A stretch of 57,575 nucleotides of DNA from Acidimicrobiales bacterium (lineage in GTDB: Bacteria; Actinomycetota; Acidimicrobiia; Acidimicrobiales; CADCSY01), in assembly GCA_040905815.1 (NCBI GenBank), contig JBBDQT010000001.1, positions 1 through 57,575 on the forward strand. The letters are read 5' to 3'. The position numbers and the translations under genes are program-made. Below are positions 5,095 to 56,659 of the stretch, piece after piece (position 1 is the first letter of the stretch; the number at the start of each line of letters is the position of its first letter). The notes under the pieces are model-generated. The model was not told the origin of the DNA. It was given only the letters and a program-made list of their open reading frames with translations, and made no database searches.

Positions 5095-7143
5095 TCAGCG
5101 CACCCCCGTCGGCACTCGTTCGGCGTCGTCCGCGGCCAGTGGCGTGCCGGCCTCCTCGGGCGTGCCGGCGGGCAGCACGGCCTGACCGGCAGGGCGTCGG
5201 CGTCGCGTGGGCCACGCCGCCAGGAGCGTGCCGGCGGCCATGATCCCGCCGCCGACCCACAACCAGGAGGCGAGCGGCTCGATGATGACGCCGAGCACGA
5301 TCGGCCCGCCCTCGCGCTCGGGGACGGCGACGAGCGTGAGGTACACGTCGTCCACGGCGCCGACCCGGACCGACGGCGTGCCGATCGTCTGCGTCGCGTT
5401 CGGGAACTGGTTCAGGGCCGGCTCGTACACCTGCCCGCCGTCGACGCGGACGCGCGCGCTGACGAGCGTGCGCTGGGGCGAGACCTGCGGCTCGTTCATT
5501 CCCTCGTACGTGACGGTGTGGCCCGCGATCGACGCGGAGGCACCCTCGGTGAGGGTGAAGGTCGCGCTCGTCGTGTACGAGGAGGCGGCCGTGAAGGCGA
5601 CCGCCACCACGACCACGCCGACGTGCACGATCATCCCGCCGTTCGAGCGCCCGACGAAGGCGCGCAGCAGTGAGGCGCCCTCCCGGCGGGCGGCGGCCAC
5701 GGCGACCACGAGCTGGCGGACGGCGGCGGCCGCGGCGAAGCCCCCGAGGCCGAACGCGAGCAGCGGCGAGATGCCCCGGGCGCCGACCGCCACCGCGGTC
5801 ACGAGGGTGGCGACGCCGACCCACATCGGCCACCGGAGCCGGTGCCACAACAGCTCGCCCGACGCCTTGCGCCACGGCAGGGCGGGTGCGACCGCCATGA
5901 GGAACAGCAGGGCGAGGCCGATCGGCGCCGTCATGCGGTTGAAGTACGGCGTGCCCACCGAGATGCGCTCGTCGTTGACCGCCTCCACGACGAGGGGGAA
6001 CACGGTGCCGAGGAGGACGACGAACGCGAAGGCGGCGAAGAGCAGGTTGTTGAGGAGGAACGCGCCCTCCCGTGACACCGGCGAATCGATGCTGCCGGGC
6101 GAGCGGAGGCGGTCGCCGCGCCAGCCGATCAGGCCGATGGTGACGACGACGGTGGCGGCGAACGCGCCGAGCAGCCACATCCCGATGGGCGACTCGGTGA
6201 AGCTGTGCACGCTGTCGAGGACGCCCGACCGGGTGAGGAACGTGCCGAGGATGGTGAGGCTGAACGTCGCCAGCAGCAGCGACAGGTTCCACACCCGGAG
6301 CATCCCGCGCCGCTCCTGGACCATCACCGAGTGCAGGTACGCGGTGCCGGTCAGCCACGGCAGGAACGACGCGTTCTCCACGGGGTCCCACGCCCAGAAG
6401 CCGCCCCACCCGAGGACCTCGTAGGACCACCACGCGCCGAGGACGATGCCGACCGTGAGGAACCCCCAGGCGAGAAGCGTCCACCGACGGGTCGCCGCCA
6501 GCCAGCCCTCGCCCAGCCGGCCCGTCACGAGGGCGGCCACCGCGAACGCGAACGGGACGGTGAAGCCGACGTAGCCGAGGTAGAGCATCGGCGGGTGGAT
6601 CGCCATGAGCGGGTGGTTCTGCAACAGGGGGTTCGGGCCGGGCCCGTCGGTCGGGATGGCGCCGGCGACGGTCGTGAACGGGTTGGCCGGTCCCGCCATC
6701 AACAGGAAGAAGAACGCGCAGACGACGAGCATGACGAGCGTCGCCCACCCCACGAGGGGGTCGGTGAGCCGGTCCCTGAACTTGACCACCACCCCGACCG
6801 TGAACCCGGCGAGGACAAGGCTCCAGAGGATGATCGACCCCTCGAGGGCGGCCCACAGGGTCGCCACGTTGTAGAGGGCGGGCGTGGCGGTGCTGCCGTT
6901 GCTCGCCACGTACGAGAGGGAGAAGTCCCGGGTGATGAGGGCGCGCTCCATGGCGACGGTGGCGAGCACGGCGCCGGCGAGGACGAGCGATGCGTAGGAC
7001 CGTCCGAGGCGGAGCAGGGCGGACCGCTTGCGGCGGAGGCCCACGGCGAGGGTGAGGATGCCGATGAGGGAAGCGGCGAGGCCGAGGGCGACGCCGGCGG
7101 TGCCGAGAGCTGCGTTCACGAGCGCGCCGCCTCCCCCGGGCAC
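5095..7143 (-). CDS. ccmF: Cytochrome c heme lyase subunit CcmF
   Basis: ORF 5095..7143 (682 aa), polytopic. Tryptophan-rich WWD motif WWSYEVLGWGGFWAWDPVENASFLPWL. The start may be a few codons downstream, because it overlaps the ccmE end by 28 nt. Confidence 0.9.
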   Translation of the reverse strand: MPGGGGALVNAALGTAGVALGLAASLIGILTLAVGLRRKRSALLRLGRSYASLVLAGAVLATVAMERALITRDFSLSYVASNGSTATPALYNVATLWAALEGSIILWSLVLAGFTVGVVVKFRDRLTDPLVGWATLVMLVVCAFFFLLMAGPANPFTTVAGAIPTDGPGPNPLLQNHPLMAIHPPMLYLGYVGFTVPFAFAVAALVTGRLGEGWLAATRRWTLLAWGFLTVGIVLGAWWSYEVLGWGGFWAWDPVENASFLPWLTGTAYLHSVMVQERRGMLRVWNLSLLLATFSLTILGTFLTRSGVLDSVHSFTESPIGMWLLGAFAATVVVTIGLIGWRGDRLRSPGSIDSPVSREGAFLLNNLLFAAFAFVVLLGTVFPLVVEAVNDERISVGTPYFNRMTAPIGLALLFLMAVAPALPWRKASGELLWHRLRWPMWVGVATLVTAVAVGARGISPLLAFGLGGFAAAAAVRQLVVAVAAARREGASLLRAFVGRSNGGMIVHVGVVVVAVAFTAASSYTTSATFTLTEGASASIAGHTVTYEGMNEPQVSPQRTLVSARVRVDGGQVYEPALNQFPNATQTIGTPSVRVGAVDDVYLTLVAVPEREGGPIVLGVIIEPLASWLWVGGGIMAAGTLLAAWPTRRRRPAGQAVLPAGTPEEAGTPLAADDAERVPTGVR

Positions 7144-23753: not shown

Positions 23754-24364
23754 GGTCGCGACCGGGCGCGCTCGAGGGCCTGGCGCCGGAAGACGTAGGC
23801 CCGGATCCGGTCCGCGTCACGGCCCGGCAACCCGGTGAAGCGGCAGCCCGCGTGGACCCGCCCGCCGAGCTCGTGGACCCGCACGACGTCGCAGCCGACC
23901 TCGAGCGTGGATCCCTCGAGCTCGAAGCGCAGCGTCACCCGCGCCTCCGCCGCGAGCGGGGCAGGCGGGCGGGCGACGACGTGGGCACCGCCCTCGCTGA
24001 GGTCCACCAGGCGTGCAGGGGTGGCGGAGCCGGCGGTGAGCACGGTGGCGGCGGTCAGGTTGAGGGCCCGGACGTGGGAGCGCCGCTGGTCCGACGTCGC
24101 CGGGCCGTCCGCCCTGAGCCGCCAGTGCGGCACCGGGTGGGCCCCGACGGCGACGAGCGTCGTCGCCAGGTGCTGCGGGCCGAACGTCCCGACCCAGGTC
24201 AGCGTCACCCGGTCGCCCACCGGCGGCGGGGTGCGCGCCGGGGGGGACGGATCGGCCACGGTCACCTCCGTGGGCTCGACGTCCTCGATGCGCGTCGAGA
24301 GCGCCTCGTCCCACCCGGTGACCTCGATCCCGACCACCGCGTTCACCGCGAGCGTCGCGAGCAT
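23750..24364 (-). CDS. PilZ-domain c-di-GMP receptor, YcgR/MotI-like two-domain architecture
   Basis: C-terminal 204 aa of ORF 23750..25126, from ATG 24364 (ATGA overlap with the flhF-like stop). PilZ motifs QRRSHVR (RxxxR) and DLSEGG (DxSxxG) with canonical spacing. N-terminal beta-rich domain. Confidence 0.8.
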   Translation of the reverse strand: MLATLAVNAVVGIEVTGWDEALSTRIEDVEPTEVTVADPSPPARTPPPVGDRVTLTWVGTFGPQHLATTLVAVGAHPVPHWRLRADGPATSDQRRSHVRALNLTAATVLTAGSATPARLVDLSEGGAHVVARPPAPLAAEARVTLRFELEGSTLEVGCDVVRVHELGGRVHAGCRFTGLPGRDADRIRAYVFRRQALERARSRP

Positions 24365-25614
24365 CAGCTCGCCAGCCGCTCGACGAGCAGGGCCGTCCAC
24401 GCCGCGGGCGTGCTGCGGCGACCCTCGACCGAGGCGATGGGCAGGCCTGCGCCGAGCATGGACGCGGGGCTCACGGTCTCCGCGCACGCGCCGACCGCGA
24501 GGGCGGAGACCCCGCCGATGGCGGCTGCCCAGGTGGCGACGTCCTCGGGCTTGCGGTCCGCCCGCACCGCGGCCCACACCGCCACCGGCTCGAGGGCGGC
24601 GATCATCTCCTGCACCCACATCCGGCCGGCGGCGCTGTCGTTCGCGCACACCGCCACGACCGTGGGGGAGCAGCTGCGCCAGGCGGGACGGCGGACGGCG
24701 GCCTCCTCGGGACCGCGCAGCGAGTTCACGCCGGCGCGACCGGCGCCGGCGACGACCACGTCGCCCGGCACCTGCCCGAGCTGGGCCGCGGCCACGCCGG
24801 CGGCCTGGATCGCCACCGCTCGCTCCCCGACCACGACCACGACGTCGCCACGGTCGACGATCAGCGGCGGCGGCGGCACCAGCAGCTGCTCGAGGGTGGC
24901 GAGGACCTGCTGGGCCTCGCTGCCGGTGCCTTGGACGCTGGCGAGGAGGTCCTGGGGGACGCCGAGCGCCCGCAGCGACGCCAGCAGCGCGGCGTCGGGC
25001 CGGGAGCCCGCAGGGGCCGCGTCGGCGCGTGGCGCCGGCGCCGCGGGCGGGGGCCCGGCCGGCGCTGCGACCGGCGCCGCGCGCGGGGGCTCGGCCGGCG
25101 CCGCACGGGTCGACACGACGGGCCACACGACCGGCGCGACGACGGGCATGGCAGCAGGAGGAGCGGTCCGGCCGTCGAGGTCGGAGACGGGCCGCTCGGA
25201 CTCGAGGTCGGTTAGCCCGGCCTCGCCGACCAGGCCCCGCAGCACCTCCTGGAAGGTCCTGCCCTCGGTGGACGGCGCGTAGGGCGCGTGCCCGGACGGG
25301 GGGCGCACCGTCGCCGCAGCCGAGGGGGCGGCCTGGCGCTCCACGTCGCTCACCTGGTCGGCGAGATCGAGGATCGAGCGCGGCGTGGCGGCGGCCGGTG
25401 GCTCGCCCACCTCTGTCCTACCCACCTCGGTCGGGTCGGCGTGCTCCGGGAGCTCCACGAGGACCTCGAAGCGCTCACGGGCGAAGAAGCCGCCGAGCCC
25501 ACCGGTTCGCACCTTCTCGGCGCTGAGGATCCGCGCCGCGGAGCCGTGCTCGTCGGTCACCCGGGCCAGAGCGGCCTCGAGGGTGTCGCCGTCAAACGTT
25601 CGCTGTGCTGGCAA
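24364..25614 (-). CDS. FlhF-like protein with a degenerate (motif-less) SRP-GTPase domain
   Basis: ORF 24364..25614. The N-terminus MPAQRTFDGDTLEAALARVTDEHGSAARILSAEKVRTGGLGGFF matches the FlhF B-domain start, followed by a P/A-rich linker. The C-terminal domain occupies the NG position, but G1 reads VVVVVGERAVAIQAAG, with no GxxGxGK[ST]. Position after flhA is syntenic with flhF. Confidence 0.6.
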   Translation of the reverse strand: MPAQRTFDGDTLEAALARVTDEHGSAARILSAEKVRTGGLGGFFARERFEVLVELPEHADPTEVGRTEVGEPPAAATPRSILDLADQVSDVERQAAPSAAATVRPPSGHAPYAPSTEGRTFQEVLRGLVGEAGLTDLESERPVSDLDGRTAPPAAMPVVAPVVWPVVSTRAAPAEPPRAAPVAAPAGPPPAAPAPRADAAPAGSRPDAALLASLRALGVPQDLLASVQGTGSEAQQVLATLEQLLVPPPPLIVDRGDVVVVVGERAVAIQAAGVAAAQLGQVPGDVVVAGAGRAGVNSLRGPEEAAVRRPAWRSCSPTVVAVCANDSAAGRMWVQEMIAALEPVAVWAAVRADRKPEDVATWAAAIGGVSALAVGACAETVSPASMLGAGLPIASVEGRRSTPAAWTALLVERLAS

Positions 25615-27752: not shown

Positions 27753-28583
27753 TCAGCGCCCGAGGGCGATCAGGTCTGCGAGGCCCTCGACGCGGCGCTC
27801 CACCCGCAGGCACAGGTCGTCCGCCAGCCGCTCGGCGATGCCGACCGCGCGCAAGGCCGCCTCGAGCGGCCGGCTCGGCTCCTGGGCCCGGCCCTGGCCG
27901 AGGCGTCCGACCACCGACTCGGCGGCGACGAGCACCGAGGCGAGCGTCCGGGGAGCGGCGGGCTCGACGTCGTGGTGGGCGGCGACGGCCGCCACCACGT
28001 CCTCCGGCAGCCGCGCGACCGCCAGCGCCCTGGCGCCGAGGTCCGGGTGGTCGCAGCCGAACCGCTCACGCTCCCACTCGAGGGCGTCGTGACCGAGGGT
28101 CGTCTGGGCCAGGTCGCGCCAGGCGGTGGGATCGCGACGAGCCTGCAGGATGGCCCCCATGTCGTGGAGGAGCCCCAGGGAGAACGCGTGCTCCCGATCC
28201 ACCCCGACCCGCTCCGCGATGACCGACGCCGCTGCTGCGGTGCCGACGGCATGCGGCCAGAAGTCATCGACCTGGTCACCGTCCGCTCGCTCGAAGAGGC
28301 CGAAGGCGGCGCCCGCCACGAGGGTTCGCACGACGGTCAGGCCGAGGATGGGCACCGCCCTCGCCGAGCTGGCGACCCGCTCGCGGAGGCCGTAGAACGA
28401 GGAGTTGGCGAGGAAGACCGCGCGCGTCGACAGCGCGAGGTCGAGGTCCATCATGCGACCGACCTCGGCGGCCGACGTCACCTCCCCGTCGAGGCGCTGC
28501 AGCACCTGGACGGCCACCACCGAGGCCACGGGGACGCCCATGACCTCCTCCAGCTCCACACCGTCGACCATTCCGTCGCTCAT
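27753..28583 (-). CDS. HDOD-domain signalling protein
   Basis: ORF 27753..28583. ...LALSTRAVFLANSSFYGLRERVASSARAVPILGL...FWPHAVGTAAAASVIAERVG...AFSLGLLHDMGAIL matches the HDOD pattern. 4-nt overlap with the flhB stop. Confidence 0.8.
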   Translation of the reverse strand: MSDGMVDGVELEEVMGVPVASVVAVQVLQRLDGEVTSAAEVGRMMDLDLALSTRAVFLANSSFYGLRERVASSARAVPILGLTVVRTLVAGAAFGLFERADGDQVDDFWPHAVGTAAAASVIAERVGVDREHAFSLGLLHDMGAILQARRDPTAWRDLAQTTLGHDALEWERERFGCDHPDLGARALAVARLPEDVVAAVAAHHDVEPAAPRTLASVLVAAESVVGRLGQGRAQEPSRPLEAALRAVGIAERLADDLCLRVERRVEGLADLIALGR

Positions 28584-34507: not shown

Positions 34508-34534
34508 ACGAGACGGCTTGGCTGTGCGGGGGGC

Positions 34535-35773
34535 CTACCGCTTCATGTTGACGAGCTCCTGGAGCAGCTCGTCCGAGGTGGTGATGACCCGGGAGTTCGC
34601 CTGGAAGCCGCGCTGGGCGACGATCAGGTTCGTGAACTCCTGGGCGAGGTCGACGTTGGACATCTCGAGCGTGCCGCCGGCGAGGATGCCACGGCCGCCG
34701 GCGCCGGCGGTGCCGACCTGCACCTGGCCGGAGTTGACGGTGCCGCGGTACATGGAGCCACCGGTCTTCTCGAGGCCGGCCGGGTTGTTGAAGCTGGCGA
34801 GCGCGACCTGGCCGAGCGACTGGTTGCGGCCGTTGGAGAACACGCCGGTGATGACGCCGTCGGGCGAGATCGAGAACGACTGGAGCGAACCGGCCGCTGA
34901 GCCGTCCTGCGACAGGGCGCCGACGGTGTTCACCGAGGCGTAGCCGGTGAGGGGCTGGCCCTCTGCCCCGAAGGTGACCGACGGCTGGGCGGTCCAGCTC
35001 CCGGGCACGCCGGTGAGGTTGAACGTGTCGGCGCTCGTGAGGTTGCCCTCACCGTCGAACGTCACGGTCTGGGCGGTGCCGATGTCGTCGGGCGTCCCGT
35101 CGCCGTCGGTGTCCGCCTGGGGCTGCACCGACCACGTGTCGGCCGCCGCGTCCTTGGTGAACACCAAGCTCACGTCCACCGCGGAGCCCTGGTCGTCGAA
35201 GAGGGTGATCGACGTGCGGATCGCCGCCCCGGTGACCGCGTCGGCCGGCAGGTTCCCGCCGAGCACGAGGTTGCCGGTCGCCTTCGGCGCGTTGAGCTGG
35301 CCGAGCGGCAAGACGATGTCGCCCACCGGGCCGTTGGTGTTGATGCCGCCGTTCCCGTCGGCGGTCCAGCCCTGCACGACGCCGCCCTGGGGGGTCGTGA
35401 GCCGGCCGTTGGCGTCGAAGGAGAAGCCCCCGGCCCGGGTGTAGAGGCTCTCGGCGCCGCTGCGGACCACGAAGAAGCCGTCGCCCTGGATCGACAGGTC
35501 GGTGCTGCGGCCGGTGTTCTGCAGACCGCCCTGGGCGAAGTTCGTGGTGGTGCCGGCGAGGCGCATGCCGAGGCCGACCTGCGCGGGGTTCGTGCCGCCG
35601 GCGCCTGCCGGCATGGCGGCGCCCTGGAGCACCTGGCTGAGGAGGTCCTGGAAGATGGTCTGGCTCGTCTTGTAGCCGGCGGTGTTCACGTTGGCGATGT
35701 TGTTGCCGGTGACGTCCATCATCGTCTGGTGGCCGCGGAGGCCCGAGACGCCTGAGTACATGGAACGGAGCAT
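34535..35773 (-). CDS. flgE: Flagellar hook protein FlgE
   Basis: ORF 34535..35773 (412 aa). MLRSMYSGVSGLRGHQTMMDVTGNNIANVNTAGYK ... RGFQANSRVITTSDELLQELVNMKR. Confidence 0.9.
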   Translation of the reverse strand: MLRSMYSGVSGLRGHQTMMDVTGNNIANVNTAGYKTSQTIFQDLLSQVLQGAAMPAGAGGTNPAQVGLGMRLAGTTTNFAQGGLQNTGRSTDLSIQGDGFFVVRSGAESLYTRAGGFSFDANGRLTTPQGGVVQGWTADGNGGINTNGPVGDIVLPLGQLNAPKATGNLVLGGNLPADAVTGAAIRTSITLFDDQGSAVDVSLVFTKDAAADTWSVQPQADTDGDGTPDDIGTAQTVTFDGEGNLTSADTFNLTGVPGSWTAQPSVTFGAEGQPLTGYASVNTVGALSQDGSAAGSLQSFSISPDGVITGVFSNGRNQSLGQVALASFNNPAGLEKTGGSMYRGTVNSGQVQVGTAGAGGRGILAGGTLEMSNVDLAQEFTNLIVAQRGFQANSRVITTSDELLQELVNMKR

Positions 35774-36328: not shown

Positions 36329-37681
36329 TCAGAGTCGGATGTCGATGCCCGCGGCAGGCGCAGCCGCTGCGGTGGTGACGGCGCCGGCGACGACGCGGGG
36401 GGCGGTGCTGGCCGGCCCTGGGCGGCGGGCGTCCCGATCGTCGCCGCGAGGCGCCTCGTGGCCGTTCGCCCCCACGTCGAGGGAGCCGGCGTCGAAGCCG
36501 GCCGCCTCGAGGTCGACCCTGAGGTCGGCGAGGCTGGCCCGCAACAGGTCACTCGTCGCGGGGACGTCGGCGCGGAGGTGGAGGCTGATCTGGTTCCCGA
36601 GCACCCGGACGTCGACGGTGACCCCACCGAGCTCCTCCGGCCGGAGCTGGAGCAACATCTGGTGGGTGCCGTCGGGTGCTCGGCGCAGGGGTGCCACCAG
36701 GGTGACGAGCTGCTCGGGCACGGCGGGCGCAGCCGTGGGGGCGACGGGCGCGGCCGGAGCGGGCCCGTCGACGGCGACGACCGGCGCCACCGCTGCGATG
36801 CCGACCGGGACGCCAGCCGCGCCGGCGGCCGGCGCGCTGGTGGCTCCGGCGGGCGTGGTGGCGCCCGGGGGGGCAGCGGGGTCGGTGGCGGCCATGGCGT
36901 CGTGGCCGTCCCGGACCGCCGCCCCATCGGCACCGCCGGCACCGGCACCGGCGTCGACGTGGACTGCGGCTGCGACCGTCGCGGGTGGGCTCACCGGCAA
37001 CGGTCTCCGGCCGGGCCCGCCGTCCTGACCGGCGCGGGTCGTGGTGTCCGCCTGGGCGGCAACCGCAGCGCGGTGCCCGGCTGCTGCGGCGTCGCCCGTC
37101 CTGATGGCGCCGCCGGCCATGCCCTCGCCGTCGACGACCTCGCCGTCGACGACCTCGGCGTTCGGCTCCTGGCCGGTGACGGTCCGCCCGCCCGCCTGGT
37201 CGGCCACGGCCTCTGCCTCGACGGCCGGGCCGTTCGGCACCTCGCCGATGGCGTCAGCGTCGATGTCGACGGCGCCATCCGGCGTCGCGGCAGGGGCGGC
37301 GGGAGCGGTGGTCGCGGCAGGAGCGGCGGGAGCGGTGGTCGCGGCGGGAGCGGTGGTCGCGGCAGGAGCGGTGGTGGCGGCGGGAGCGGCCTGCAGCGAC
37401 CCCGTCACGGACCCGGCGAGCGCCGATGCCAGCCTGTCGTCCGGCGCGAGCCCCTCCGCCGGCTCGGCAGCGTCGGCGGTCTGCTCCACCGGCGCCTCGC
37501 CGTCGGCCGCGGCCTCGCCAGCGACGGCCGCCAGCTCGGTCGTGAGCGCGTCGACCATCGCCGCGAACGCGGTCGCCAGGTCCTGGGGGGCGCCCGCCCG
37601 GCCCGACGGGCCGGCGGTGCTCACCGGATGGGCCCCGGTGGGGGCTGCCCGGAGCGCGGGCATCGCAGAGGTGGTGGTCAT
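36329..37681 (-). CDS. fliK: Flagellar hook-length control protein FliK
   Basis: ORF 36329..37681. A/P/T-rich, unstructured-looking N-terminal two thirds. C-terminal Flg_hook-type domain [51 protein letters not shown]. Confidence 0.8.
37298..37390 (-). repeat. Imperfect tandem 18-nt repeats inside fliK encoding (APAATT)n
   Basis: The DNA reads ggcgggagcggtggtcgc / ggcaggagcg... about 5 times. The protein reads [36 protein letters not shown]. Confidence 0.8.
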
Positions 37682-38727
37682 GAGAGCTCCTTGACGATGC
37701 GGGCCACGTAGCCCTGGGTCTCGCGGAAGGGGGGGATGCCGCCGTAGCGCTGCACGGCGCCGGGGCCGGCGTTGTAGGCGGCGAGGGCCAGCTCGACGGA
37801 GCCGAACTGGCGGAGGTGGGACCCCAGCAGCCGGGCCGCACCGTCCACGGCCTGGGCCGGGTCGAACGGGTCGGCGACGCCGAGGCCCCGGGCGGTGGCG
37901 GGCATGAGCTGCATGAGACCCTGGGCCCCGGCGCGGCTGACGGCGCGGGGGTTGAAGCCCGACTCGGCCCGGGCCACGGCGGTGAGGAGGGCGGGGGAGA
38001 CGCCGTGGCGCTCGCCGGCGGCCGCGAACAGCTCCGCGTAGGGGCCGCCGGCCGCGCCAGCGCCTCCGCTGCCGGCGACGGCGCCGGGGGCGGGAGCATC
38101 GGGGAGGATCCGCCGGATCACCGACGGCGGCTTGGTGATCTCCTGGATCTTCACCACGTCGCCGCTGCGGGGGGCGACGATCATCTTGTTGTCACCCATG
38201 TAGATCCCGATGTGGTCGATGCCGGGGCGGGCGGCGCTCCAGTCGAACGCGACGAGGTCGCCCGGGCGGGCCTCCGCCAGCGACGCGACGGGCCGGCCGG
38301 CCCTGGCCTGGTCGGCGCTCACCCGGGGCACCGCGATGCCGAGGTCCTTGAAGCTGCGCTGGATGAACCCGGAGCAGTCGAGCCCGACGGCCGGGTCGGT
38401 CCCGCCCCACAGGTACGGCACGCCGAGGTACTTGCGGGCGGCGGCGATCACCTGGTCGCCGCTCACGCCGCCCGCCGGAGCGTCGAGGGAGGTGGCTGCC
38501 GACGCCGACACCGGAGCTTGGGCCGCCCAGCTGGCCCGCAGGCCGTCCGTGCCGGTTGCCGCCCCAGCCATGGCCAGGACATCCTCGAAGCTGACGGGCG
38601 CCGCATCGCGGGAGGGCACCGCCAGCGGGTTGGCGCTCGGCCGCGGCGCCACGATCCCCGTCGGGACGCTGAAGCGGGCATGGATGGCGGCCATTCGGGC
38701 CTGGACCTCCGCGACGGCGGCGGTCAC
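37678..38727 (-). CDS. Bifunctional peptidoglycan hydrolase: NlpC/P60 endopeptidase domain plus SLT lytic transglycosylase domain
   Basis: ORF 37678..38727. P60: [27 protein letters not shown]...IDHIGIYMG...[11 protein letters not shown]: [30 protein letters not shown]...[13 protein letters not shown]. No hydrophobic signal peptide is visible at the N-terminus. Confidence 0.85.
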
Positions 38728-39152
38728 CGGGTCCTCCCGTAGCGCGCGCTGAACTGCTCGTCAGCCTCGGCGTCCTCGTCCCGGCGCACCGCGACGGCGT
38801 GCTCCTCCCGGTGCCGGCCCTCGAGCCGCTCGAGGCCGGTCACCCGCATGCGGGCAGCCTGGAGCGCCCCGCGCTCCTCCTCCACCCTGAGCTGGGCCAC
38901 CTCGCGGGCGGTCCCGGCGGCGAGGACGGAGGCGGCGGTGCGGTCGAGGCCGCCACGGTCGGCGAGCCACGTCGCGGCCGGTCGCGGGCCGGGCTGCTGG
39001 GGCATCGTCGCGTAGCGCGCGAGCGATCCCTCGAGCAGCACCTCGGCGCCGGCAAGGCCGTGGCTGGCCGCCACGAACCCGGCGCGGGCGACGTCCTCCT
39101 GGATGCGGCGGACCCGCAGCACCGGCTCGAGGGCGAAGCGGTAGCGCTTCAC
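38724..39152 (-). CDS. fliJ: Flagellar export chaperone/stalk protein FliJ
   Basis: ORF 38724..39152 (142 aa). [23 protein letters not shown]..., coiled-coil-like, immediately downstream of fliI. Confidence 0.55.
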
Positions 39153-44958: not shown

Positions 44959-46326
44959 ATGGCCGAAGATCGCTTCACGTTCACCGGTGACGGAGGCCCC
45001 ATGCTCGACGACGCCCTTTCGGGGATCTCCCCGGAGCTCTTCCTCGTGGCGACGACGGAGCACCTCCTCGGCCTGGACAGCACCGCGCGGTGCCGACTGG
45101 TCCACTCCGGCGCAGGCCTCTACTACGGTCTCGCCCAGGACGACCGCCACGTGTACGTGGCGTGCCGGCACGAGACAGTCGGCCACGACGACGCCAGCTC
45201 GCGGGCCCAGCAGACCGGCAGCATCCTGGTGCTCGACATCACGTCCTTGGAGGTCGTGGACGAGATCGAGCCTCCCTTCCCGCTCCGCGACGTCCACGGG
45301 ATGAGCTGCTTCGACGGCTGTCTCTGGGTCACGTGCTCGTACGACAACATGGTCGCCGTCTTCGATCTCGATCTGCGGTCATGGGAGCGGTGGTACCCAG
45401 CGGTGGACACGAGGGCGCAAGGTTCTGACGTGAACCACTTCAACTCCATCGCGCCGATCGACGACGGCCGTGTCGTGGTGGTCGCCCACAACAACGGGCT
45501 GAGCCACCTCCAGGTCCACGACCGGCGTTCGCTGGAGCTGCTCTCCGTCGCGCCGTTGGGCAACCAGGCACACGACGTGTTCTTCGTCGACGGCTCGATC
45601 GGCACGTGCAGCTCTGGTGACGGCCAGCTCATCTCGGCCGCCGGGTGGCAACTTCGCACTGGCGGGTTCCCCCGCGGTGTCGCCTACGGGACCGACCGGA
45701 CACTGGTGGGCGTCTCCCCCCGCGCCTCGAGGACGGAGCGCCACATGCAGTCGCCCCTCGTTCGGGTATTCACGCGCTCGTGGGTGCGCGTGGCCGATGT
45801 CGTCCTCCCCGGGGCAGGAATGGTCCTCGCCATCGCTCGCATGCCGGCGCGGACGCGCCCCGTCGGCCTCCCTGCCTGGCCCAACGCGGTCGTCTCCGCC
45901 GTGCGGGGCAGCCCGATCCGGGACGGGGACGCCTACGACGTCGCTGACGGCGCGTGTTCGGCGCTGGTGGCGTCGGAGTGGCACGAAGCACGGGAAGCGC
46001 ACCGTTGGACCGCCGCCCGACATGCGCGGATGGCGATCGTGGTGAACCCCGGCGACACGACGCTGGCGGTCTCGGCGACGAGCCACTACCCGGGTGCGTA
46101 CGGGGCCACGCTGCACCTCGACGGGAGGCTTGTCGGCGAGATCGGATGGGCGCGCCCGGCCGCGCGGCACGAGCGGTTCAGCCTCCCCGAGGGTGTCGCC
46201 GGGCAGGTCGAGCTCACGATCAGCGTTCCGCACCTGTGGCGACGGTCGGATCGGCTCGCCTACAGCTCAGACGACCGTGTGGTGGGCATCGGCATCGCCC
46301 GCATCGCCCTGGAGCAGCGCCGGTGA
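44959..46326 (+). CDS. Hypothetical protein, beta-propeller-like N-terminal two thirds (possibly DUF4915/TIGR03032-related)
   Basis: ORF 44959..46326 (455 aa), divergent from flgB. Repeated beta-strand-like blocks (HVYVACRH, CLWVTCSYDNMVAVFDL, VNHFNSIAPIDDGRVVVVAHNNG). The family guess is weak. Confidence 0.45.
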   Translation: MAEDRFTFTGDGGPMLDDALSGISPELFLVATTEHLLGLDSTARCRLVHSGAGLYYGLAQDDRHVYVACRHETVGHDDASSRAQQTGSILVLDITSLEVVDEIEPPFPLRDVHGMSCFDGCLWVTCSYDNMVAVFDLDLRSWERWYPAVDTRAQGSDVNHFNSIAPIDDGRVVVVAHNNGLSHLQVHDRRSLELLSVAPLGNQAHDVFFVDGSIGTCSSGDGQLISAAGWQLRTGGFPRGVAYGTDRTLVGVSPRASRTERHMQSPLVRVFTRSWVRVADVVLPGAGMVLAIARMPARTRPVGLPAWPNAVVSAVRGSPIRDGDAYDVADGACSALVASEWHEAREAHRWTAARHARMAIVVNPGDTTLAVSATSHYPGAYGATLHLDGRLVGEIGWARPAARHERFSLPEGVAGQVELTISVPHLWRRSDRLAYSSDDRVVGIGIARIALEQRR

Positions 46327-46350: not shown

Positions 46351-47940
46351 TCAGATCGACATGGCCGGGGCGACGGGGACGGGCTCGCTCCCCACGGGGA
46401 CGAGCGTCACCCGGCCGTCGATGGCGGTGGCTGCCACGCGGTGCTGCGTGCTGCGGACGATGTAGCGAGCAGCCCGCACGGCGATGACCACGCCGGGGCG
46501 GAGGGCCTGGCGGGCCACGACGCGGGGGCGCGAGTCGTCCTCACCGGGTTGGAGGGCCACGATCCGGTCCTTGATGCCGGCGAGCTGTGCCTCGAGCGAG
46601 CTGGCGATGGTGAGCAGCCGCTCGACGGCGCTGCGCCGGTCAGCGGGCAGGGCGGCGAGCGCCTCCGGCCGCTGCCTGAACGGGGCCACGGCGAGCTGCA
46701 CCCGGTCGGCGGTCCGCTCGTGCTCGGCCTGCTCGGCGACGAGCGCCTCGAGGAGCTCGGCGGTGAAGGGGTCGATCCCGACGTTGACGCGGGTGGCGAC
46801 GCCGCCGACGGCTCCGATCTCGCCCGCGACCACCTGGTGGCCGGCCCACGCCGCACCACCGGAGATCCGGTTGCGTGCTCCCTCGAAGACGAGGTCCACG
46901 CCGGCGAGGATCGTGGCCTCGTGGGCCTCGCGCTCGACGTACACGCTGCGCCTGGCCTCGAGGCGGCCGTGGTGCACGGTGCGCACCTTCACGTCACCGG
47001 CGGAGCGCACCACGCTGTGCTCGCCCACCACCGCGCCCCGCACCCACACGAGCGACTCGCTCTGCACCTCGCCGTCCTCGACGTCGCCCATGACCACGAC
47101 CCGGCCGCCGGCGTGGACGCGGAAACCCGGTTGCACCGAGCCCCGGACGACCACGTCGCCGCTGAAGGAGATGGAGCCGGTCTCGAAGTCGACGTCGCCC
47201 GGCACGACGAAGTCAGGCCGCACCGAGACCTTCTCGGCGGTGACCTCGAGGAGGCCGTCGATGGCCGCGTAGAGCCGCCGGCCGTCCTCGCTGACCGTGA
47301 CGTTCTCGCCGGTCGGCAACGTGGCGTCCGCGCCGGGCTCGGCGGGGACGGCCTCGCCCCGCACCGTGCGTCCCGGGGTACCTGCGGTGGGCGCGACCAG
47401 CACGGCGAGGAGCTGGCCGTTCTGGACGTCGGGGATGGTGGCGACGGAGTGGAAGTCGACACCGCCGTCGCGGCGCGCCTGAGGTCGGAACTCCTGGCTG
47501 ACGGTCACCGTGTACTCGACCTGGCCGTCCCGCCCTGGGGCGGGCTCCCAACCGGTCGCGACCAGGTACTCGCCGGGCACGTGCAGGGGCAAGGCGCCGA
47601 GGAGCAGGTGGTCGACGCCGAGCTTCACGCCCGCCTCCGCCAGCGTCACCTCCACGGCGGCGGGCGTGAGCGGGGCGGCCAGCTCACCGGCGGCCGACAC
47701 CTGCAACGTGGCGGTCATGCCCGTGGGGTCCACGACCACGGCCAGCGCGCCGGCTCGGCGCCGGGCGTCGAAGCGGGCGACGGCGCCCGGCTCGCGGCGC
47801 TGCAGGACCACCTCGACGGCTCCGACGTCGAGCTGCTCGTAGCCGGCCGCATCCGCCTCCCGGATGACCTCCTCCATGGCGGTGACGTCCTCGGGCTCGA
47901 CGGTCAGCCACACCTCCTCCCCCCGCTGCTCCCAGTGCAC
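46351..47940 (-). CDS. FapA-family (DUF342) flagellar assembly protein
   Basis: Part of ORF 46351..48174, from GTG 47940 (AGAGGAGG SD). Central beta-helix-like repeats (GDVDFETGSISFSGDVVVRGSVQPGFRVHAGGRVVVMGDVEDGEVQSE...), then a coiled-coil segment and the C-terminal PGVVIAV...ARY pattern typical of DUF342. Confidence 0.75.
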   Translation of the reverse strand: MHWEQRGEEVWLTVEPEDVTAMEEVIREADAAGYEQLDVGAVEVVLQRREPGAVARFDARRRAGALAVVVDPTGMTATLQVSAAGELAAPLTPAAVEVTLAEAGVKLGVDHLLLGALPLHVPGEYLVATGWEPAPGRDGQVEYTVTVSQEFRPQARRDGGVDFHSVATIPDVQNGQLLAVLVAPTAGTPGRTVRGEAVPAEPGADATLPTGENVTVSEDGRRLYAAIDGLLEVTAEKVSVRPDFVVPGDVDFETGSISFSGDVVVRGSVQPGFRVHAGGRVVVMGDVEDGEVQSESLVWVRGAVVGEHSVVRSAGDVKVRTVHHGRLEARRSVYVEREAHEATILAGVDLVFEGARNRISGGAAWAGHQVVAGEIGAVGGVATRVNVGIDPFTAELLEALVAEQAEHERTADRVQLAVAPFRQRPEALAALPADRRSAVERLLTIASSLEAQLAGIKDRIVALQPGEDDSRPRVVARQALRPGVVIAVRAARYIVRSTQHRVAATAIDGRVTLVPVGSEPVPVAPAMSI

Positions 47941-47965
47941 GCGGCCCGCCTCCTCTGACCGGCCG

Positions 47966-48262
47966 CTACAGAGGACGGTCGACGTAGCGCGCGACGGTGG
48001 GCGCCGTCGTCGCCGAGACGAGGCGACGGACGACCTGGACCTCGGGGCCGGCGAGGCTGGCCTCGAGGTGCGCCTGCACCTCGGCGGCCTCCTGCAGGAG
48101 GTCCTCGGCCCTGGCCCGGAGCTCGGCGGGGAGCGGGCCCATCGACGGGGGCGGCGCGAACGGCCCGACGGCATCCGGCTGGCCGGCGTGCAGGGCGGCC
48201 CGCTGGTCTGCGAGCCGGGCGGCGAAGGCGTCGAGGGCGCGCTCCCACGCGGCGAGGCTCAC
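47966..48262 (-). CDS. Hypothetical helical protein in the FliT position (98 aa)
   Basis: GTG 48262 forms a GTGA overlap with the fliS stop. VSLAAWERALDAFAARLADQRAAL...AEDLLQEAAEVQAHLEASL. No sequence-level family call. Confidence 0.4.
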   Translation of the reverse strand: MSLAAWERALDAFAARLADQRAALHAGQPDAVGPFAPPPSMGPLPAELRARAEDLLQEAAEVQAHLEASLAGPEVQVVRRLVSATTAPTVARYVDRPL

Positions 48263-53007: not shown

Positions 53008-55836
53008 TCACGTCGTCCTCGCGTTCAGATGTGGGAGGTCTGGTGCCTGCCGCGCGCGGCCGACCAGAGCATCCCTCGTCAACGACCTCCCGTGCAGCGC
53101 CCGCTCGAGCTCGCCGTGCCACCAGCCCGGAAGCGGCACGCCTGCGTCGAGCTCGACGGGGGAGTCGACGGCGGCGCGGAGGCGGCGCGCGTCCTCGGGC
53201 CCGAGCACCTGGGGGATGAGGAGCATGTCGGGCGCCCGGTCCGGGTCGACGCCGGCGCCTCGAAGGGCTGCAGTGACCGCCTCCACGATGTCGTCGGGCG
53301 ATGTCTCGGAGCCGTCCTCGGCGTAGAGCACGAGCGTGGTCGGCTCCGCTGGACCGAGCGAGCGTGCGTAGCCCACGACCAGGTCGCGCACCGACCTCGC
53401 GCCGCAGACTTGGGCGGCGAACGTCACCCGGTCGCCGGTGTCGAGGGGGAACGGCGAGGCGGCCCGGTCCCGGAGCACCGCCCAGCTGCGGGTCGGCTCG
53501 GTGCCGGCGAGCGTGCACAGCCGCTCCTCGACCTCGGCCGCAGTGCGGTCCCAGGTGAGCGCTTCGAGCACGTGCTCACGGGCCGCCCGGGCGTTCCGGA
53601 GGGCGAGGTCGCGGTCCGACACGGCGAGCTCCATGAGCCGGCCCAGCTCCTCGACGTCGGGCTCCCAGAGCCAGTAGCCCGCAGCGCTCGGCCCGAAGGC
53701 GTCGCCGGCGATGGGTCGCTGCTCGGCGGGGACCAGGAAGGCGCGGTCATCGGTGCAGTAGTCGAGCGCGGCGCCCGCGCCGGTGGTGATGACGGGCAGG
53801 CCAGATGCCATCGACTCGACGATCGGCAGCCCGAACCCCTCCCCCCGGTAGGGGTGGGCCAGCACGTCGCACGTCCGGTACAGAGCAGCGACGTCTCGGG
53901 GCATGAGGTCATCGGAGATGAGCTCGATCTCCGGCGCCGAGGGATCGTCCTGGAGCCTGCGGATCTCGGCGTCGATGCTGGCATCGGCGTAGAACGACTC
54001 GCTGCCGAAGCTCTTGACGACCAGGCAGACGTCGTCGGCGCGGCTGAAGGTGGCGGCGTAGGCGCGCAGGAGCAGGTCGGTTCCCTTGCGAGGGATCGTG
54101 CCGCCCACGAACAGCAGCTTGGTCCCTCGCCGGGTCCGCAGCGGGTAGCGGTCGCCGTCGGGGCGGAACACCGCCGGGTCGACCCCGAGCGGGATCACGT
54201 GCAGCCGCTCCTCGGGCACCCCGGAGTCCCGGTACACGTCGCGCACGTAGCTCGAGTAGCACCAGACCTCGTCGACCTGGCGGAGGAGCGGGGGAAGCCA
54301 CGCGTCCGGTAGGCCGCCGTACTCCCACGGCTGCATGACGACCCACGCTCCCGAGCCAGGGGGCGTCCAGTCCGGGGGCCACTGGTGGCGCACCTCCACG
54401 TCGGCACGCGCGGCGAGCACGGACCCGGTCACCGCTGCCAGCGGCCCGAGCGAGGGATCGGCGTCGGGGTCAGGCGAGCGCCTCTCGGATGTCACTGCTT
54501 CGAGCTCGACCGCACCCCGCTGCACCAGCCGGCGACAGATCTCCCGGTTGACCGACGCGAGGCTGTGGTGGGCGAACTGCTCGCCCCGCCAGCGGACCCG
54601 GGGGGCATCCGGGCGGGACGGCGCGCGCCGCGGGCGAAGTCCCGCGTCGAGCTCCACGAGCCGCTCGCTGACGACCTCCAGCGCCGAGGACCACGTCCAG
54701 CGCCGTTCGACATCGGCCCGTGCCCGCTGCCCGAGGGCCCGCGCCGCCGAGGGGTCCTCCGCCACGTGGCGCAGCAGGCGGGCGAGATGACGAGCGGACG
54801 GTCGGGCCCAGCGATGGCCACGGTAGAACGCCAGCTCCTCGCGCCTCCCGACCGCGTCGATGCTCTGCACGTCGACGAGCAGGCTGTTGTCGTCGTCCAT
54901 GAACTCGAGGTTGCCGCTCCAGCGGGTGCCGATGGTGGGAAGGCCCGTTGCCATCGCCTCGAGGAGGGGCCGCCCCCACCCCTCGCCGCGGCTGATGCCC
55001 ACGTACGCGTCGGCGCTGGCGTACAGCCGCGGCATGTCGGCGGTGGGGACGGGTTGCTCGAGCACGACGATGGGCGCCACGCTCGCCCGGGTCCTCCCCA
55101 TCCGGCGGAGGAAGTCATCGATCCGGCGGCTGACCCAGTCAGGACTGCTCCGGGCGTCCGGGTCGAGGGCGTAGCTGCGGATCACCAGGGAGACGTCGTC
55201 GGTGGGCCCGAACGCCATCGCCCACGCCCGGAGCAGCACGTCCCACGCCTTGCGGTAGCTCCACTCGAAAACCGAGAGGAAGGCCGTCTTCCGGGTGCCG
55301 GTGAGCGCCAGGGGCTCGAGCCCGGGGCGGTAGCGGTCCGCGTCGACCCCCCCGGGCACCACGTGGACCGGTGTGCGGACGCCGGCGCGTCGGAACGTCT
55401 CGAGGTTGAAAGCGGACGGCACCCAGACCTCGTCCACCGCGTTCAGCTGCTGCACCCAGCTCGGCGGCAGCCGGTCCGTCTCGAACATGGTCCGCGCCAC
55501 GTTGCGGACGTGGCCGGCCGGACCGATGGCGTGGGCCGGCATGTGGTGGACCCCGAGGCTGTAGCGGTGCGGCGGCTCGGAGACCACCGCTTCGAGGCGC
55601 CCCCGCTGGACCGGGTCGAACCCGTCCAGGAAGGCGGGCTCCACCGGGTACAGCGGGTGTGCCCGGACCGGCCAGCCCCGCTCTTGAACGCCGAGGACGA
55701 ACGCCCTGGCCTCGTCGGCGTAGCCGCTGTGGTTGAGCAGCGGCGCGTGCCACTCGACCCCGAGCACCTGGTGGGCACCCAGGCTCATCACCAGCCGGTC
55801 CATCGGCTCCGTCACCGCCTCCAGGTAGGGCATCAT
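53008..55836 (-). CDS. Large tandem GT-B (GT4-type) glycosyltransferase, two catalytic modules plus a C-terminal domain of unknown function
   Basis: ORF 53008..55836 (942 aa). Two EX7E-type regions: ISRGEGWGRPLLEAMATGLPTI and HPYRGEGFGLPIVESMASGLPVI. Confidence 0.8.
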   Translation of the reverse strand: MMPYLEAVTEPMDRLVMSLGAHQVLGVEWHAPLLNHSGYADEARAFVLGVQERGWPVRAHPLYPVEPAFLDGFDPVQRGRLEAVVSEPPHRYSLGVHHMPAHAIGPAGHVRNVARTMFETDRLPPSWVQQLNAVDEVWVPSAFNLETFRRAGVRTPVHVVPGGVDADRYRPGLEPLALTGTRKTAFLSVFEWSYRKAWDVLLRAWAMAFGPTDDVSLVIRSYALDPDARSSPDWVSRRIDDFLRRMGRTRASVAPIVVLEQPVPTADMPRLYASADAYVGISRGEGWGRPLLEAMATGLPTIGTRWSGNLEFMDDDNSLLVDVQSIDAVGRREELAFYRGHRWARPSARHLARLLRHVAEDPSAARALGQRARADVERRWTWSSALEVVSERLVELDAGLRPRRAPSRPDAPRVRWRGEQFAHHSLASVNREICRRLVQRGAVELEAVTSERRSPDPDADPSLGPLAAVTGSVLAARADVEVRHQWPPDWTPPGSGAWVVMQPWEYGGLPDAWLPPLLRQVDEVWCYSSYVRDVYRDSGVPEERLHVIPLGVDPAVFRPDGDRYPLRTRRGTKLLFVGGTIPRKGTDLLLRAYAATFSRADDVCLVVKSFGSESFYADASIDAEIRRLQDDPSAPEIELISDDLMPRDVAALYRTCDVLAHPYRGEGFGLPIVESMASGLPVITTGAGAALDYCTDDRAFLVPAEQRPIAGDAFGPSAAGYWLWEPDVEELGRLMELAVSDRDLALRNARAAREHVLEALTWDRTAAEVEERLCTLAGTEPTRSWAVLRDRAASPFPLDTGDRVTFAAQVCGARSVRDLVVGYARSLGPAEPTTLVLYAEDGSETSPDDIVEAVTAALRGAGVDPDRAPDMLLIPQVLGPEDARRLRAAVDSPVELDAGVPLPGWWHGELERALHGRSLTRDALVGRARQAPDLPHLNARTT

Positions 55837-55849
55837 CGCGACCCGGCGG

Positions 55850-56659
55850 TCAGGGCCGGACCGCGGTCGCCGTCATGTTCGGCTCGTGGTCGAGGTCGAC
55901 GACGACGAAGCCAGCCAGGGCCAGGCTCTCCTGGAACGTCGCGGGGGTGAACCCGTGGTGGTGGGCGTCGAAGGCGCCGTCGGGGCCCCACCGGTGCCCG
56001 CCGTAGACGTTCTCGATCACCTCGGCCACGTCGTGGCCCCCGAGCAGCAGTGAGGCGAGCGCATCGAGGTTGGGGACCCGGCACCGCAGCACCCCGTCGG
56101 GCAGGAGGACCCGATGCCACTCCGCCAGCAGCTCCTGGGTGCGGAAGACGGGAACGTGCTCGAGGATGTCCATCGCCAGCACCTCGGCGACGCAGCGGTC
56201 CGGGAACGGCAGTGCCTCCACCGAGGCGACCACGTCGGACACCTCGGTCCGCAGGTCGATCGAGAGGTAACCGGGCCGGCGGTCGTCGCCGGCGCCCACA
56301 TTGAGCCGCAGCTGGCCATCCTGGGGGTCGGTGGGGCTCGCCACGACCGGCGTCGGGTCGGTGAGCGAGAGGCGGTTGGCGGCGACATCGAGGTCGTCGG
56401 GGTCGAGCACCGCGGCACGCTCGATCATGGCCTTGGCCTCGTCGACGAGGTCGCAGGCGTAGAGGACGGCGGCCACGTCGGAGAGGAGGCGGGCGTCCTC
56501 GCCGTGCTCGCGGACCGCCGCCAGCAGGACGCCGAGCACATCGGTCGCCGCGGCACCGGCACGGAGCAGGAGCTCGGCGTGCTGGCGGGCCTGGGCGATC
56601 GCCGCCGGTCGGAGGATGGAGGAGGACGAAGCGCCCGGTCCCGGCTCTGAGCCTCTCAT
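55850..56659 (-). CDS. Class I SAM-dependent methyltransferase (Methyltransf_11/23-like) with an N-terminal helical domain
   Basis: ORF 55850..56659. LRLNVGAGDDRRPGYLSIDL...VLAMDILEHVP...WHRVLLPDGVLRCRVPN. Confidence 0.75.
   Translation of the reverse strand: MRGSEPGPGASSSSILRPAAIAQARQHAELLLRAGAAATDVLGVLLAAVREHGEDARLLSDVAAVLYACDLVDEAKAMIERAAVLDPDDLDVAANRLSLTDPTPVVASPTDPQDGQLRLNVGAGDDRRPGYLSIDLRTEVSDVVASVEALPFPDRCVAEVLAMDILEHVPVFRTQELLAEWHRVLLPDGVLRCRVPNLDALASLLLGGHDVAEVIENVYGGHRWGPDGAFDAHHHGFTPATFQESLALAGFVVVDLDHEPNMTATAVRP

Follow-up and report, generated by a model that had tools for sequence, protein, structure and literature searches.

A two-domain hydrolase gene within a flagellar operon

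We analysed a 57,575-nucleotide (nt) stretch of DNA, hereafter the window, from an Acidimicrobiales bacterium (class Acidimicrobiia; GenBank assembly GCA_040905815.1, contig JBBDQT010000001.1). Its flagellar gene cluster contains, between fliJ and fliK, a gene for a 349-residue protein that joins a conserved N-terminal module (N-module), an NlpC/P60 domain and an SLT domain in a single chain (Table 1). The cluster starts with fliC-fliD-fliS, a FapA-like gene and flgB-flgC-fliE-fliF-fliG-fliH-fliI-fliJ, and after the P60+SLT gene it continues with fliK-flgD-flgE-fliL-fliM-fliN-fliO-fliP-fliQ-fliR-flhB, an HDOD gene and flhA. FliI, FlgD, FlgE and FliL have clear matches in Pfam and NCBIfam. The assignment of FliJ is weak, both of its matches (TIGR02473 and PF02050) being below cut-off, and is consistent with its position after fliI. 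No FlgF, FlgG, FlgJ or further wall hydrolase was found in the flagellar cluster of the window, and the left 23 kb of the window consists of housekeeping genes unrelated to flagella.

A first-pass annotation, made from the sequence alone, had described the gene as a fusion of a P60 endopeptidase with an SLT lytic transglycosylase, lodged in the fliJ–fliK slot with 4-nt overlaps on both sides. This description stood up: both Pfam domains lie on one chain and score far above cut-off, all the motifs that had been quoted are present, and the overlaps can be read directly in the sequence as GTGA at the start and ATGA at the end. The two overlaps predict translational coupling with both neighbours. 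The G+C content at third codon positions (GC3) is 0.946 and that of the neighbouring genes 0.89–0.98, i.e. host-like. A longer N-terminus that might hide a signal peptide could be excluded, as no start codon lies between the GTG and the in-frame stop that precedes it, and conserved amino acids set in from residue 2 on.

Catalytic domains and predicted fold

The profile search that the first-pass annotation had proposed returned both families above their curated cut-offs. NLPC_P60 (PF00877, of the clan CA cysteine peptidases) covers residues 102–199 (E-value 1.6e-22; 79.9 bits versus a cut-off of 23) and SLT (PF01464) covers residues 233–335 (3.2e-30; 104.5 bits versus 21.3). Residue conservation was read from alignments of 52, 69 and 127 relatives, and the catalytic residues that had been pointed out earlier proved to be invariant: C118 and H172 of the P60 domain and E255 of the SLT domain are present in all 127 relatives. 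The same is true of S256 and Y318, the latter being part of an invariant Y318-N-A-G321 motif. Both the GLMQ and the AYNAG motif expected of SLT family 1 are present. The third position of the P60 triad, 12 residues after H172, is occupied by V184 instead of a polar His, Glu, Asn or Asp, and V184 aligns with the catalytic His of the solved P60 enzymes 8v3w_H and 7cfl_A. Across the 127 relatives this column contains Ala (67), Val (31), Glu (23), His (4), Asn (1) and Asp (1), so that Ala or Val accounts for 77% (98/127). The P60 domain of the fusion is therefore best described, as far as alignments can tell, as a predicted conserved Cys-His dyad with a non-canonical third position.

The AlphaFold2 model of the protein has a mean predicted local distance difference test score (pLDDT) of 82 and a predicted template-modelling (TM) score of 0.46. 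It comprises two confident globular domains (residues ∼ 88–210 and ∼ 225–349) with a disordered linker between them (pLDDT below 50 at residues 215–224). In the N-terminal part, a helix at residues 2–19 (pLDDT ∼ 83) and a short helix at residues 47–55 are separated from each other and from the rest by disordered stretches. Profile matches in the PDB were RipA/B, MepS, YkfC and Tn916-type hydrolases for the P60 part, and Slt70, MltF and T7 gp16 for the SLT part; a tape-measure protein was matched as well. Foldseek matched the NlpC/P60 fold to YkfC, MepS, SagA and RipB with a root-mean-square deviation of ∼ 2 Å. Neither sequence profiles nor fold comparison found a solved structure that spans both domains (the best query-normalised TM score was ∼ 0.33), and NCBIfam returned only domain-level matches below cut-off (RipA/B/C, MepS, Slt70, MltF and Borrelia BB0259).

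The N-terminus lacks a classical signal and carries a conserved module

Signals were called with a Kyte-Doolittle heuristic on the first 70 residues, calibrated on the window's own proteins and not equivalent to a dedicated signal-peptide predictor. The N-terminus of the P60+SLT protein reaches a maximal hydropathy of 0.85 over 19 residues and 1.56 over 10 residues. These values are in the range of the type III-exported proteins of the window (FlgE, 0.78/1.16; FlgC, 0.64/1.34; FliK, 1.47/1.57), whereas the membrane or signal segments of FliL, FliO, FliP, FliQ, FliR and a sortase score 1.75–2.54 and 2.6–3.3, respectively. The N-terminus has no RR pair, which a Tat motif would contain, and no lipobox is possible because the only Cys of the protein is the catalytic C118. 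Among 121 family members the best N-terminal 19-residue value is never above about 1.4. Within the limits of this heuristic, the absence of Sec, Tat and lipoprotein signals noticed in the first-pass annotation held on re-analysis.

In place of such a signal, the family shares a module with two parts. The helix has the approximate consensus [AV]-x-V-Q-x-R-[IMV]-x-x-I-x-x-x-[FL]; R11 is present in 125 of 125 aligned sequences, and V8, I/M12 and I15 are nearly invariant. A low-complexity and otherwise unconserved linker joins this helix to an aromatic motif whose first position, residue 47, is aromatic throughout the family (Phe in 64 and Trp in 62 of 127 sequences). In most family members an F-x-x-x-hydrophobic motif is found at residues 31–54. 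No Pfam model matched the N-module, even at E-values up to 10.

Export signals of early flagellar substrates are known to combine small non-polar residues 3–7 from the N-terminus with a gate-recognition motif, F-x-x-x-hydrophobic, that lies at least 30 residues in, at a spacing of at least 19 (PMC8983047). The P60+SLT protein has the same layout, with small non-polar residues at positions 3–8 (A3, A4, V5, A6 and V8) followed by F47-EDV-L51. The motif also occurs in substrates encoded in the window itself: FliE (F30-GDL-L), FlgD (F29-LKL-L), FlgE (F41-QDL-L) and FliK (F39-AAM-V). Judged from sequence, the N-module is laid out like the export signal, likewise in two parts, that early flagellar substrates carry.

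A rod-binding N-terminal domain, which had been raised as a possibility in the first-pass annotation, was not borne out. The FlgJ-type domain PF10135 gave no match at E-values up to 10 in ten N-termini of the family, and the hhalign probability was 0.3%; the positive control, a protein in which a FlgJ N-domain is fused to SLT (L047, see below), scored 1.5e-13. A FlgJ-type N-terminus was accordingly rejected.

Distribution and synteny

The family is abundant in the databases and annotated only generically. The 349-residue protein has more than 7,900 matches in the databases, and the top 120 of these all have the PF00877+PF01464 architecture and generic names. Named sources among the top matches are Modestobacter, Geodermatophilus, Blastococcus, Trujillonella, Nocardioides, Frankiales and Acidimicrobiales; the named relatives come from genera that are listed as flagellated or zoospore-forming.

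For the analysis of gene order, contigs from one genome per species were collected through the P60+SLT protein itself, which yielded 22 two-domain loci from Geodermatophilus, Blastococcus, Nocardioides, Pimelobacter, Actinoplanes, Paractinoplanes, Couchioplanes, Dactylosporangium, Pedococcus, Micromonosporaceae and Acidimicrobiia. In all 21 loci with an upstream flank the gene is found immediately downstream of fliI, which is itself preceded by fliG and usually also by fliH, and in 20 of the 22 fliK and/or flgD-flgE follow downstream. The exceptions are L011, which has no upstream match, and L018, which is too short downstream.

Because these loci had been found through the protein itself, the analysis was repeated with FliI as the anchor in metagenome contigs, where 46 loci had at least 1.7 kb downstream. 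At a FliI identity of at least 64%, an N-module hydrolase occupied the slot in 16 out of 16 loci (12 P60+SLT, 3 P60-only and 1 SLT-only). The 30 more distant loci comprised 10 with an SLT-only protein, 1 with a P60-only protein and 19 with neither. Ten more contigs were short, and in these the start of a P60 domain lies at the right distance.

One copy stands apart from the flagellar loci. In Blastococcus sp. MG754426 (L022:5785-6360, +) an N-module and a P60 domain are followed by the inter-domain linker, at which the protein ends, so that there is no SLT domain; neither the ∼ 6 kb upstream nor the ∼ 4 kb downstream of it showed any flagellar gene. This copy could be what remains where the flagellar cluster has been lost.

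Variants of the slot: a constant module with variable cargo

The N-module is not restricted to the two-domain proteins. The P60+SLT form was found in Actinomycetia and Acidimicrobiia, and the module is also carried by SLT-only proteins in the same operon slot, in which R11 is invariant and F47 nearly so. The SLT-only proteins come from Armatimonadota (L034, L078), Vulcanimicrobiota (L060), Melainabacteria (L036, L052), an uncultured actinomycete (L040) and many metagenome loci (L085, L130, L131, L136, L153 and L157). The slot protein of a member of the Chloroflexota (L032) has the F-x-x-x-hydrophobic motif and no evident helix of the R11 type. P60-only variants with an N-module occur in the metagenome loci L113:3106-3870, L115:3915-4622, L116 (open reading frame ending at 6994) and L122:1472-2200, and all four have a canonical residue, His or Asp, at the third position of the triad. 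In L113, L115 and L116 the protein has no SLT domain and closes with a short C-terminal tail (e.g. SDALRSLFTSMLQGSSL).

The simplest reading of these sequence comparisons is that the N-module would be a flagellum-specific element on which the hydrolase domain can be exchanged. We infer that the SLT-only form, which occurs in several monoderm-type phyla, would be the older, widespread one, and that P60 would have been inserted later between tag and SLT in Actinomycetia and Acidimicrobiia.

Domain swapping on a flagellar tag was also seen outside this family. A Gemmatimonadales metagenome-assembled genome (L047:5557-6423, +) encodes a FlgJ rod-binding domain (PF10135, 1.5e-13) fused to SLT and not to the usual GH73, which is another case of an exchanged hydrolase domain.

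Comparison with known hydrolases

The closest experimental precedent is CwlQ (YjbJ) of Bacillus subtilis, a SigD-dependent lytic transglycosylase without a Sec or Tat signal that the flagellar type III system secretes (Sanchez, Dunn & Kearns 2021, 10.1101/2021.01.13.426625; J Bacteriol 203:e00029-21). Its secretion depends on FliF and is blocked by the removal of residues 2–35; it is needed for swarming and not for flagellar assembly, the mutants having a modest drop in basal bodies and hooks (10.1101/2021.01.13.426625). It is thus established in principle that a monoderm can export an SLT enzyme without a signal through its flagellar type III apparatus. CwlQ and the P60+SLT protein share a C-terminal SLT domain with a catalytic Glu, preceded by a non-catalytic N-terminal region of ∼ 60–100 residues without a Sec or Tat signal, and both belong to the flagellar gene set. 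Unlike the P60+SLT protein, CwlQ has no NlpC/P60 domain, is encoded by a separate late gene under SigD control and not between fliJ and fliK, and has an N-terminal domain that has been called poorly conserved.

Stand-alone SLT proteins of Bacillaceae that are similar to CwlQ in size have 47–57% identity to the SLT domain of the window's protein. A search with such a protein returned generic names only and no B. subtilis entry among the 120 matches listed. The Bacillaceae proteins of L024:5683-6402, L025:5669-6310 and L029:5767-6468 are encoded outside flagellar operons; they have an F-x-x-x-hydrophobic motif ∼ 35–45 residues from the N-terminus (GPFQQLL, LFRGLL and MFNSML) and no R11-type helix.

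FlgJ of beta- and gamma-proteobacteria is likewise a flagellum-specific wall hydrolase without a Sec signal whose export takes place at the rod stage by way of the flagellar apparatus, and it too combines an N-terminal tag or scaffold domain with a C-terminal catalytic domain. The P60+SLT protein differs from it in having neither the rod-binding domain nor GH73 (Pfam found only PF00877 and PF01464) and in having two catalytic domains rather than one.

SltF of Rhodobacter, PleA of Caulobacter and BB0259 of Borrelia are SLT-family enzymes for flagellar assembly that are made as separate proteins. They act in the periplasm and have their own route there; SltF uses Sec and is recruited by FlgJ. 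None of them has a P60 domain or an N-module. Membership of the BB0259 family (NF047373) was rejected for the P60+SLT protein, which reached 75.1 bits versus a cut-off of 234 with the SLT part only (5.3e-21). A Sec-dependent route of the SltF type was rejected as well, as the heuristic found no h-region, twin-arginine motif or lipobox Cys.

That one protein cuts both glycan strands and, with NlpC/P60 or CHAP, stem peptides so that a large machine can cross a thick wall is known from CwlT (ICEBs1/Tn916-type), TraG (pIP501) and PrgK (pCF10), and CwlT-type P60 domains (4hpe, 4fdy) are among the best PDB matches of the window's P60 domain. In these proteins the order is opposite, glycosidase then peptidase, and they serve type IV secretion and are exported with a membrane anchor or a signal; they are not flagellar and have no N-module. 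Mycobacterial RipA and RpfB pair an actinobacterial NlpC/P60 endopeptidase with an enzyme resembling lytic transglycosylases in the same type of wall, and RipA and RipB are strong matches of the P60 domain studied here. RipA and RpfB are two separate Sec-exported proteins that act at the septum, whereas here both activities are predicted in one chain that is linked to flagella.

The first-pass annotation had set the protein apart from the solutions embodied by FlgJ and by SltF and PleA. That distinction remains for the added P60 domain and the position within the operon; otherwise it falls, the precedent of CwlQ having been overlooked. The protein is best filed as an enzyme of the CwlQ kind that is encoded in the operon, has a conserved N-module and is fused to NlpC/P60, and it does not represent a new principle. 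What appears new is the in-operon P60+SLT fusion and the conserved N-module with swappable cargo, whereas flagellum-exported wall hydrolases as such (FlgJ, CwlQ) were known already.

Proposed function

We put at roughly 0.6 the probability that the P60+SLT protein is a flagellum-associated bifunctional peptidoglycan hydrolase that is exported through the flagellar type III gate by means of its N-module and opens the actinobacterial wall. Given the lack of a Sec or Tat signal, the export gate is the most likely exit. The flagellar export proposed in the first-pass annotation is supported, though not proven, by indirect arguments. It gains strength because the N-module has the layout of an early-substrate signal, as in FliE, FlgD, FlgE and FliK of the same genome; because, from phylum to phylum, this operon slot is taken by proteins that have the same module and an interchangeable hydrolase cargo; and because CwlQ, a signal-less SLT enzyme, is secreted in a FliF-dependent manner with a requirement for its N-terminus.

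According to this proposal, the protein would be co-translated with the rod- and hook-stage genes (fliF to fliJ on one side and fliK-flgD-flgE on the other) and would pass out of the cell, in an unfolded state, by the flagellar type III export gate. The N-module, with its small non-polar N-terminal residues, R11 helix and F-x-x-x-hydrophobic motif, would serve as the export tag, and this motif could dock on the C-terminal part of FlhB (FlhB-C) in the way that rod and hook subunits do with their gate-recognition motif. Beyond the membrane, at the growing rod or hook, the two flexibly linked domains would refold. The SLT domain (E255) would then cleave glycan strands and the NlpC/P60 domain (C118/H172) stem peptides, most likely at the γ-D-Glu-diamino-acid bond, and between them the two cutters would make or enlarge an opening around the rod or hook in the actinobacterial wall, which is thick and highly cross-linked. 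If the protein is a substrate of the early type, the FliK/FlhB switch would end its export after completion of the hook and limit damage to the wall in time.

Several points weigh against this proposal. Half of the sampled family, namely the Geodermatophilaceae, has W-x-x-A-A in place of F-x-x-x-hydrophobic. The latter motif is short and expected by chance in a single sequence, so that its weight comes from conservation, and the invariant Arg of the N-terminal helix is not typical of a sequence that acts as a type III signal and nothing else, which is a hint of some other partner. Val or Ala at the third triad position may mean that the P60 activity is reduced or atypical. Flagellar assembly does not need CwlQ, the one relative in kind that has been tested, which leaves a dedication to flagellar insertion unproven, and the hydrolase activity of FlgJ in Salmonella is not strictly required but only enhances assembly (2026 Salmonella paper).

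The last two points lead to the alternative that survives best, in which the same exported enzyme would have an accessory role, tuning how the wall is cleared around a rod or hook that is already in place, or the number or stability of flagella, with penetration itself taking place through natural pores in the wall. Flagella are still made in CwlQ mutants, in which swarming alone is lost and basal bodies and hooks are modestly fewer; the current model for B. subtilis is one of mobile basal bodies searching for pores; and the enhancing effect of FlgJ activity in Salmonella is in keeping with such a role. We nevertheless consider it unlikely: unlike the separate, SigD-dependent cwlQ, the gene appears translationally coupled inside the rod/hook-stage operon, a slot hydrolase is kept in all 16 of the close FliI-anchored loci, and the lineage, which is without FlgJ, gained a second catalytic domain.

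It is improbable, to our mind, that SLT alone is catalytic and that the P60 domain has turned into a module for binding or positioning stem peptides, as in RipD-like inactive NlpC/P60 proteins. The non-polar Ala or Val at the third triad position in 98 of 127 relatives would fit this, all the more as P60-only slot variants keep His or Asp there. However, the Cys nucleophile and the catalytic His are invariant (127/127), the inactive P60 domains that are known have lost the Cys, and Cys-His dyads can suffice in papain-like folds.

That the protein is a general growth or cell-separation autolysin, or a lysin of a mobile element or phage, which merely happens to lie in a flagellar operon and is released by a non-flagellar route such as non-classical secretion or lysis, would agree with the frequency of P60 and SLT in autolysins, conjugative elements and phages and with PDB matches such as Tn916-type hydrolases, T7 gp16 and a tape-measure protein, but is very hard to reconcile with a position conserved in two classes and many genera with relatives from flagellated or zoospore-forming genera, with the coupling on both sides, with an N-module common to slot enzymes of other phyla and with the truncation of the Blastococcus copy that has no flagellar genes nearby, a mobile-element origin in particular being rejected on the host-like GC3 and the conserved synteny.

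A bolder extension of the proposed function is speculative, and we regard it as doubtful. The N-module would define a previously unrecognised cross-phylum family of in-operon flagellar wall-cutters with SLT, P60 or both as cargo; in the clade without FlgJ, FlgF and FlgG, the P60+SLT form would be the long-sought dedicated, assembly-critical factor for crossing the thick wall; and the N-module, beyond being a mere export tag, would also dock on the tip of the rod or hook and functionally replace the FlgJ cap.

Significance

By what means flagella get through the thick wall of Gram-positives is a recognised question, for which the P60+SLT protein offers a concrete and widely conserved candidate. 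A phylogenomic survey has concluded that the lineage with the fusion (Actinomycetia and Acidimicrobiia) lost FlgF, FlgG and FlgJ, and asks how a minimal rod without these three proteins assembles in thick peptidoglycan (mBio, 2023). The CwlQ study stated that no dedicated hydrolase is known in Gram-positives (10.1101/2021.01.13.426625), and the 2026 Salmonella paper argues that Bacillus relies on the porosity of its wall. The P60+SLT gene is not mentioned in the text of the mBio survey or in three of its supplements, nor in the paper on TrxA of Actinoplanes. In the literature that we covered, from which Jang et al. 2016 (PMC4966450, on the Actinoplanes cluster) lay outside, no paper describing a flagellar P60+SLT protein was found.

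The position in the core rod/hook operon, two complementary predicted cutting activities and an export-like tag make up the profile of the protein, and we regard it, on the strength of sequence comparison, as a strong candidate for the factor that gets the flagella of thick-walled actinobacteria through the wall. Its occurrence in Nocardioides and in Actinoplanes, a genus with a genetically studied species, makes the question directly testable. The pairing of a constant N-terminal tag with a swappable hydrolase provides a natural system in which the signals for flagellar type III export could be defined in monoderms, and the N-module is a possible secretion tag for actinobacterial biotechnology.

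Feature coordinates and other genes of the window

Table 1. Positions, in window coordinates, of the P60+SLT gene, its parts and its two neighbours. SD, Shine-Dalgarno; AF2, AlphaFold2.
Feature	Position	Strand	Basis or remark
Whole coding sequence, N-module + NlpC/P60 + SLT, 349 residues	37678..38727	-	Open reading frame list, Pfam
N-module part 1, predicted amphipathic helix, residues 2-19	38671..38724	-	AF2 and alignment
N-module part 2, F47-E-D-V-L51 (F-x-x-x-hydrophobic)	38575..38589	-	Alignment and AF2
NlpC/P60 domain, fold residues ~88-210	38098..38466 (Pfam part 38131-38424)	-	Pfam, PDB profiles, Foldseek
P60 residues C118, H172 and V184	38374-38376, 38212-38214 and 38176-38178	-	Alignment
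Gly/Ala/Pro-rich flexible inter-domain linker, residues 211-224	38056..38097	-	AF2
SLT domain, fold residues 225-349	37681..38055 (Pfam part 37723-38031)	-	Pfam, PDB profiles
SLT residues, catalytic E255 and AYNAG	37963-37965 and 37765-37779	-	Alignment
SD-like GGGAGGA	38732..38738	-	Within the end of fliJ, 4 nt 5' of the GTG start; sequence read
GTGA overlap, P60+SLT gene start/fliJ stop	38724..38727	-	4 nt
ATGA overlap, P60+SLT gene stop/fliK start	37678..37681	-	4 nt
fliJ, upstream neighbour	38724..39152	-	TIGR02473 1.5e-6, PF02050 5e-4, position after fliI
fliK, downstream neighbour, hook-length ruler	36329..37681	-	PF02120 Flg_hook 4.8e-16

FliK has tandem Ala/Thr/Pro repeats in its N-terminal half (∼ 37270–37390, -), probably a repetitive spacer of variable length. 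Further downstream, fliL follows directly after flgE (34509–34535), where many relatives have ∼ 2.4 kb between the two genes (e.g. L001:9802-12185). The insert of the relatives is possibly motAB or flbD; neither motA nor motB was seen among the window's open reading frames that were scanned. Two large open reading frames have a coding-like GC3 and no Pfam match, one for 455 residues on the opposite strand (44959–46326, +) and one for 416 residues that adjoins flhA (24364–25614, -). The FapA-like protein encoded between fliS and flgB (46351–48174, -) matches PF03961 and PF20250. An HDOD/HD-domain protein is encoded between flhB and flhA (27753–28583, -; PF08668, 1.5e-35) and may be a signalling or regulatory insert in the flagellar cluster. 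Directly upstream of flagellin-fliD-fliS, a gene for a 942-residue multi-domain glycosyltransferase of family GT4 and an adjoining methyltransferase gene (53008–56659, -) suggest an island for the glycosylation or other modification of flagellin.

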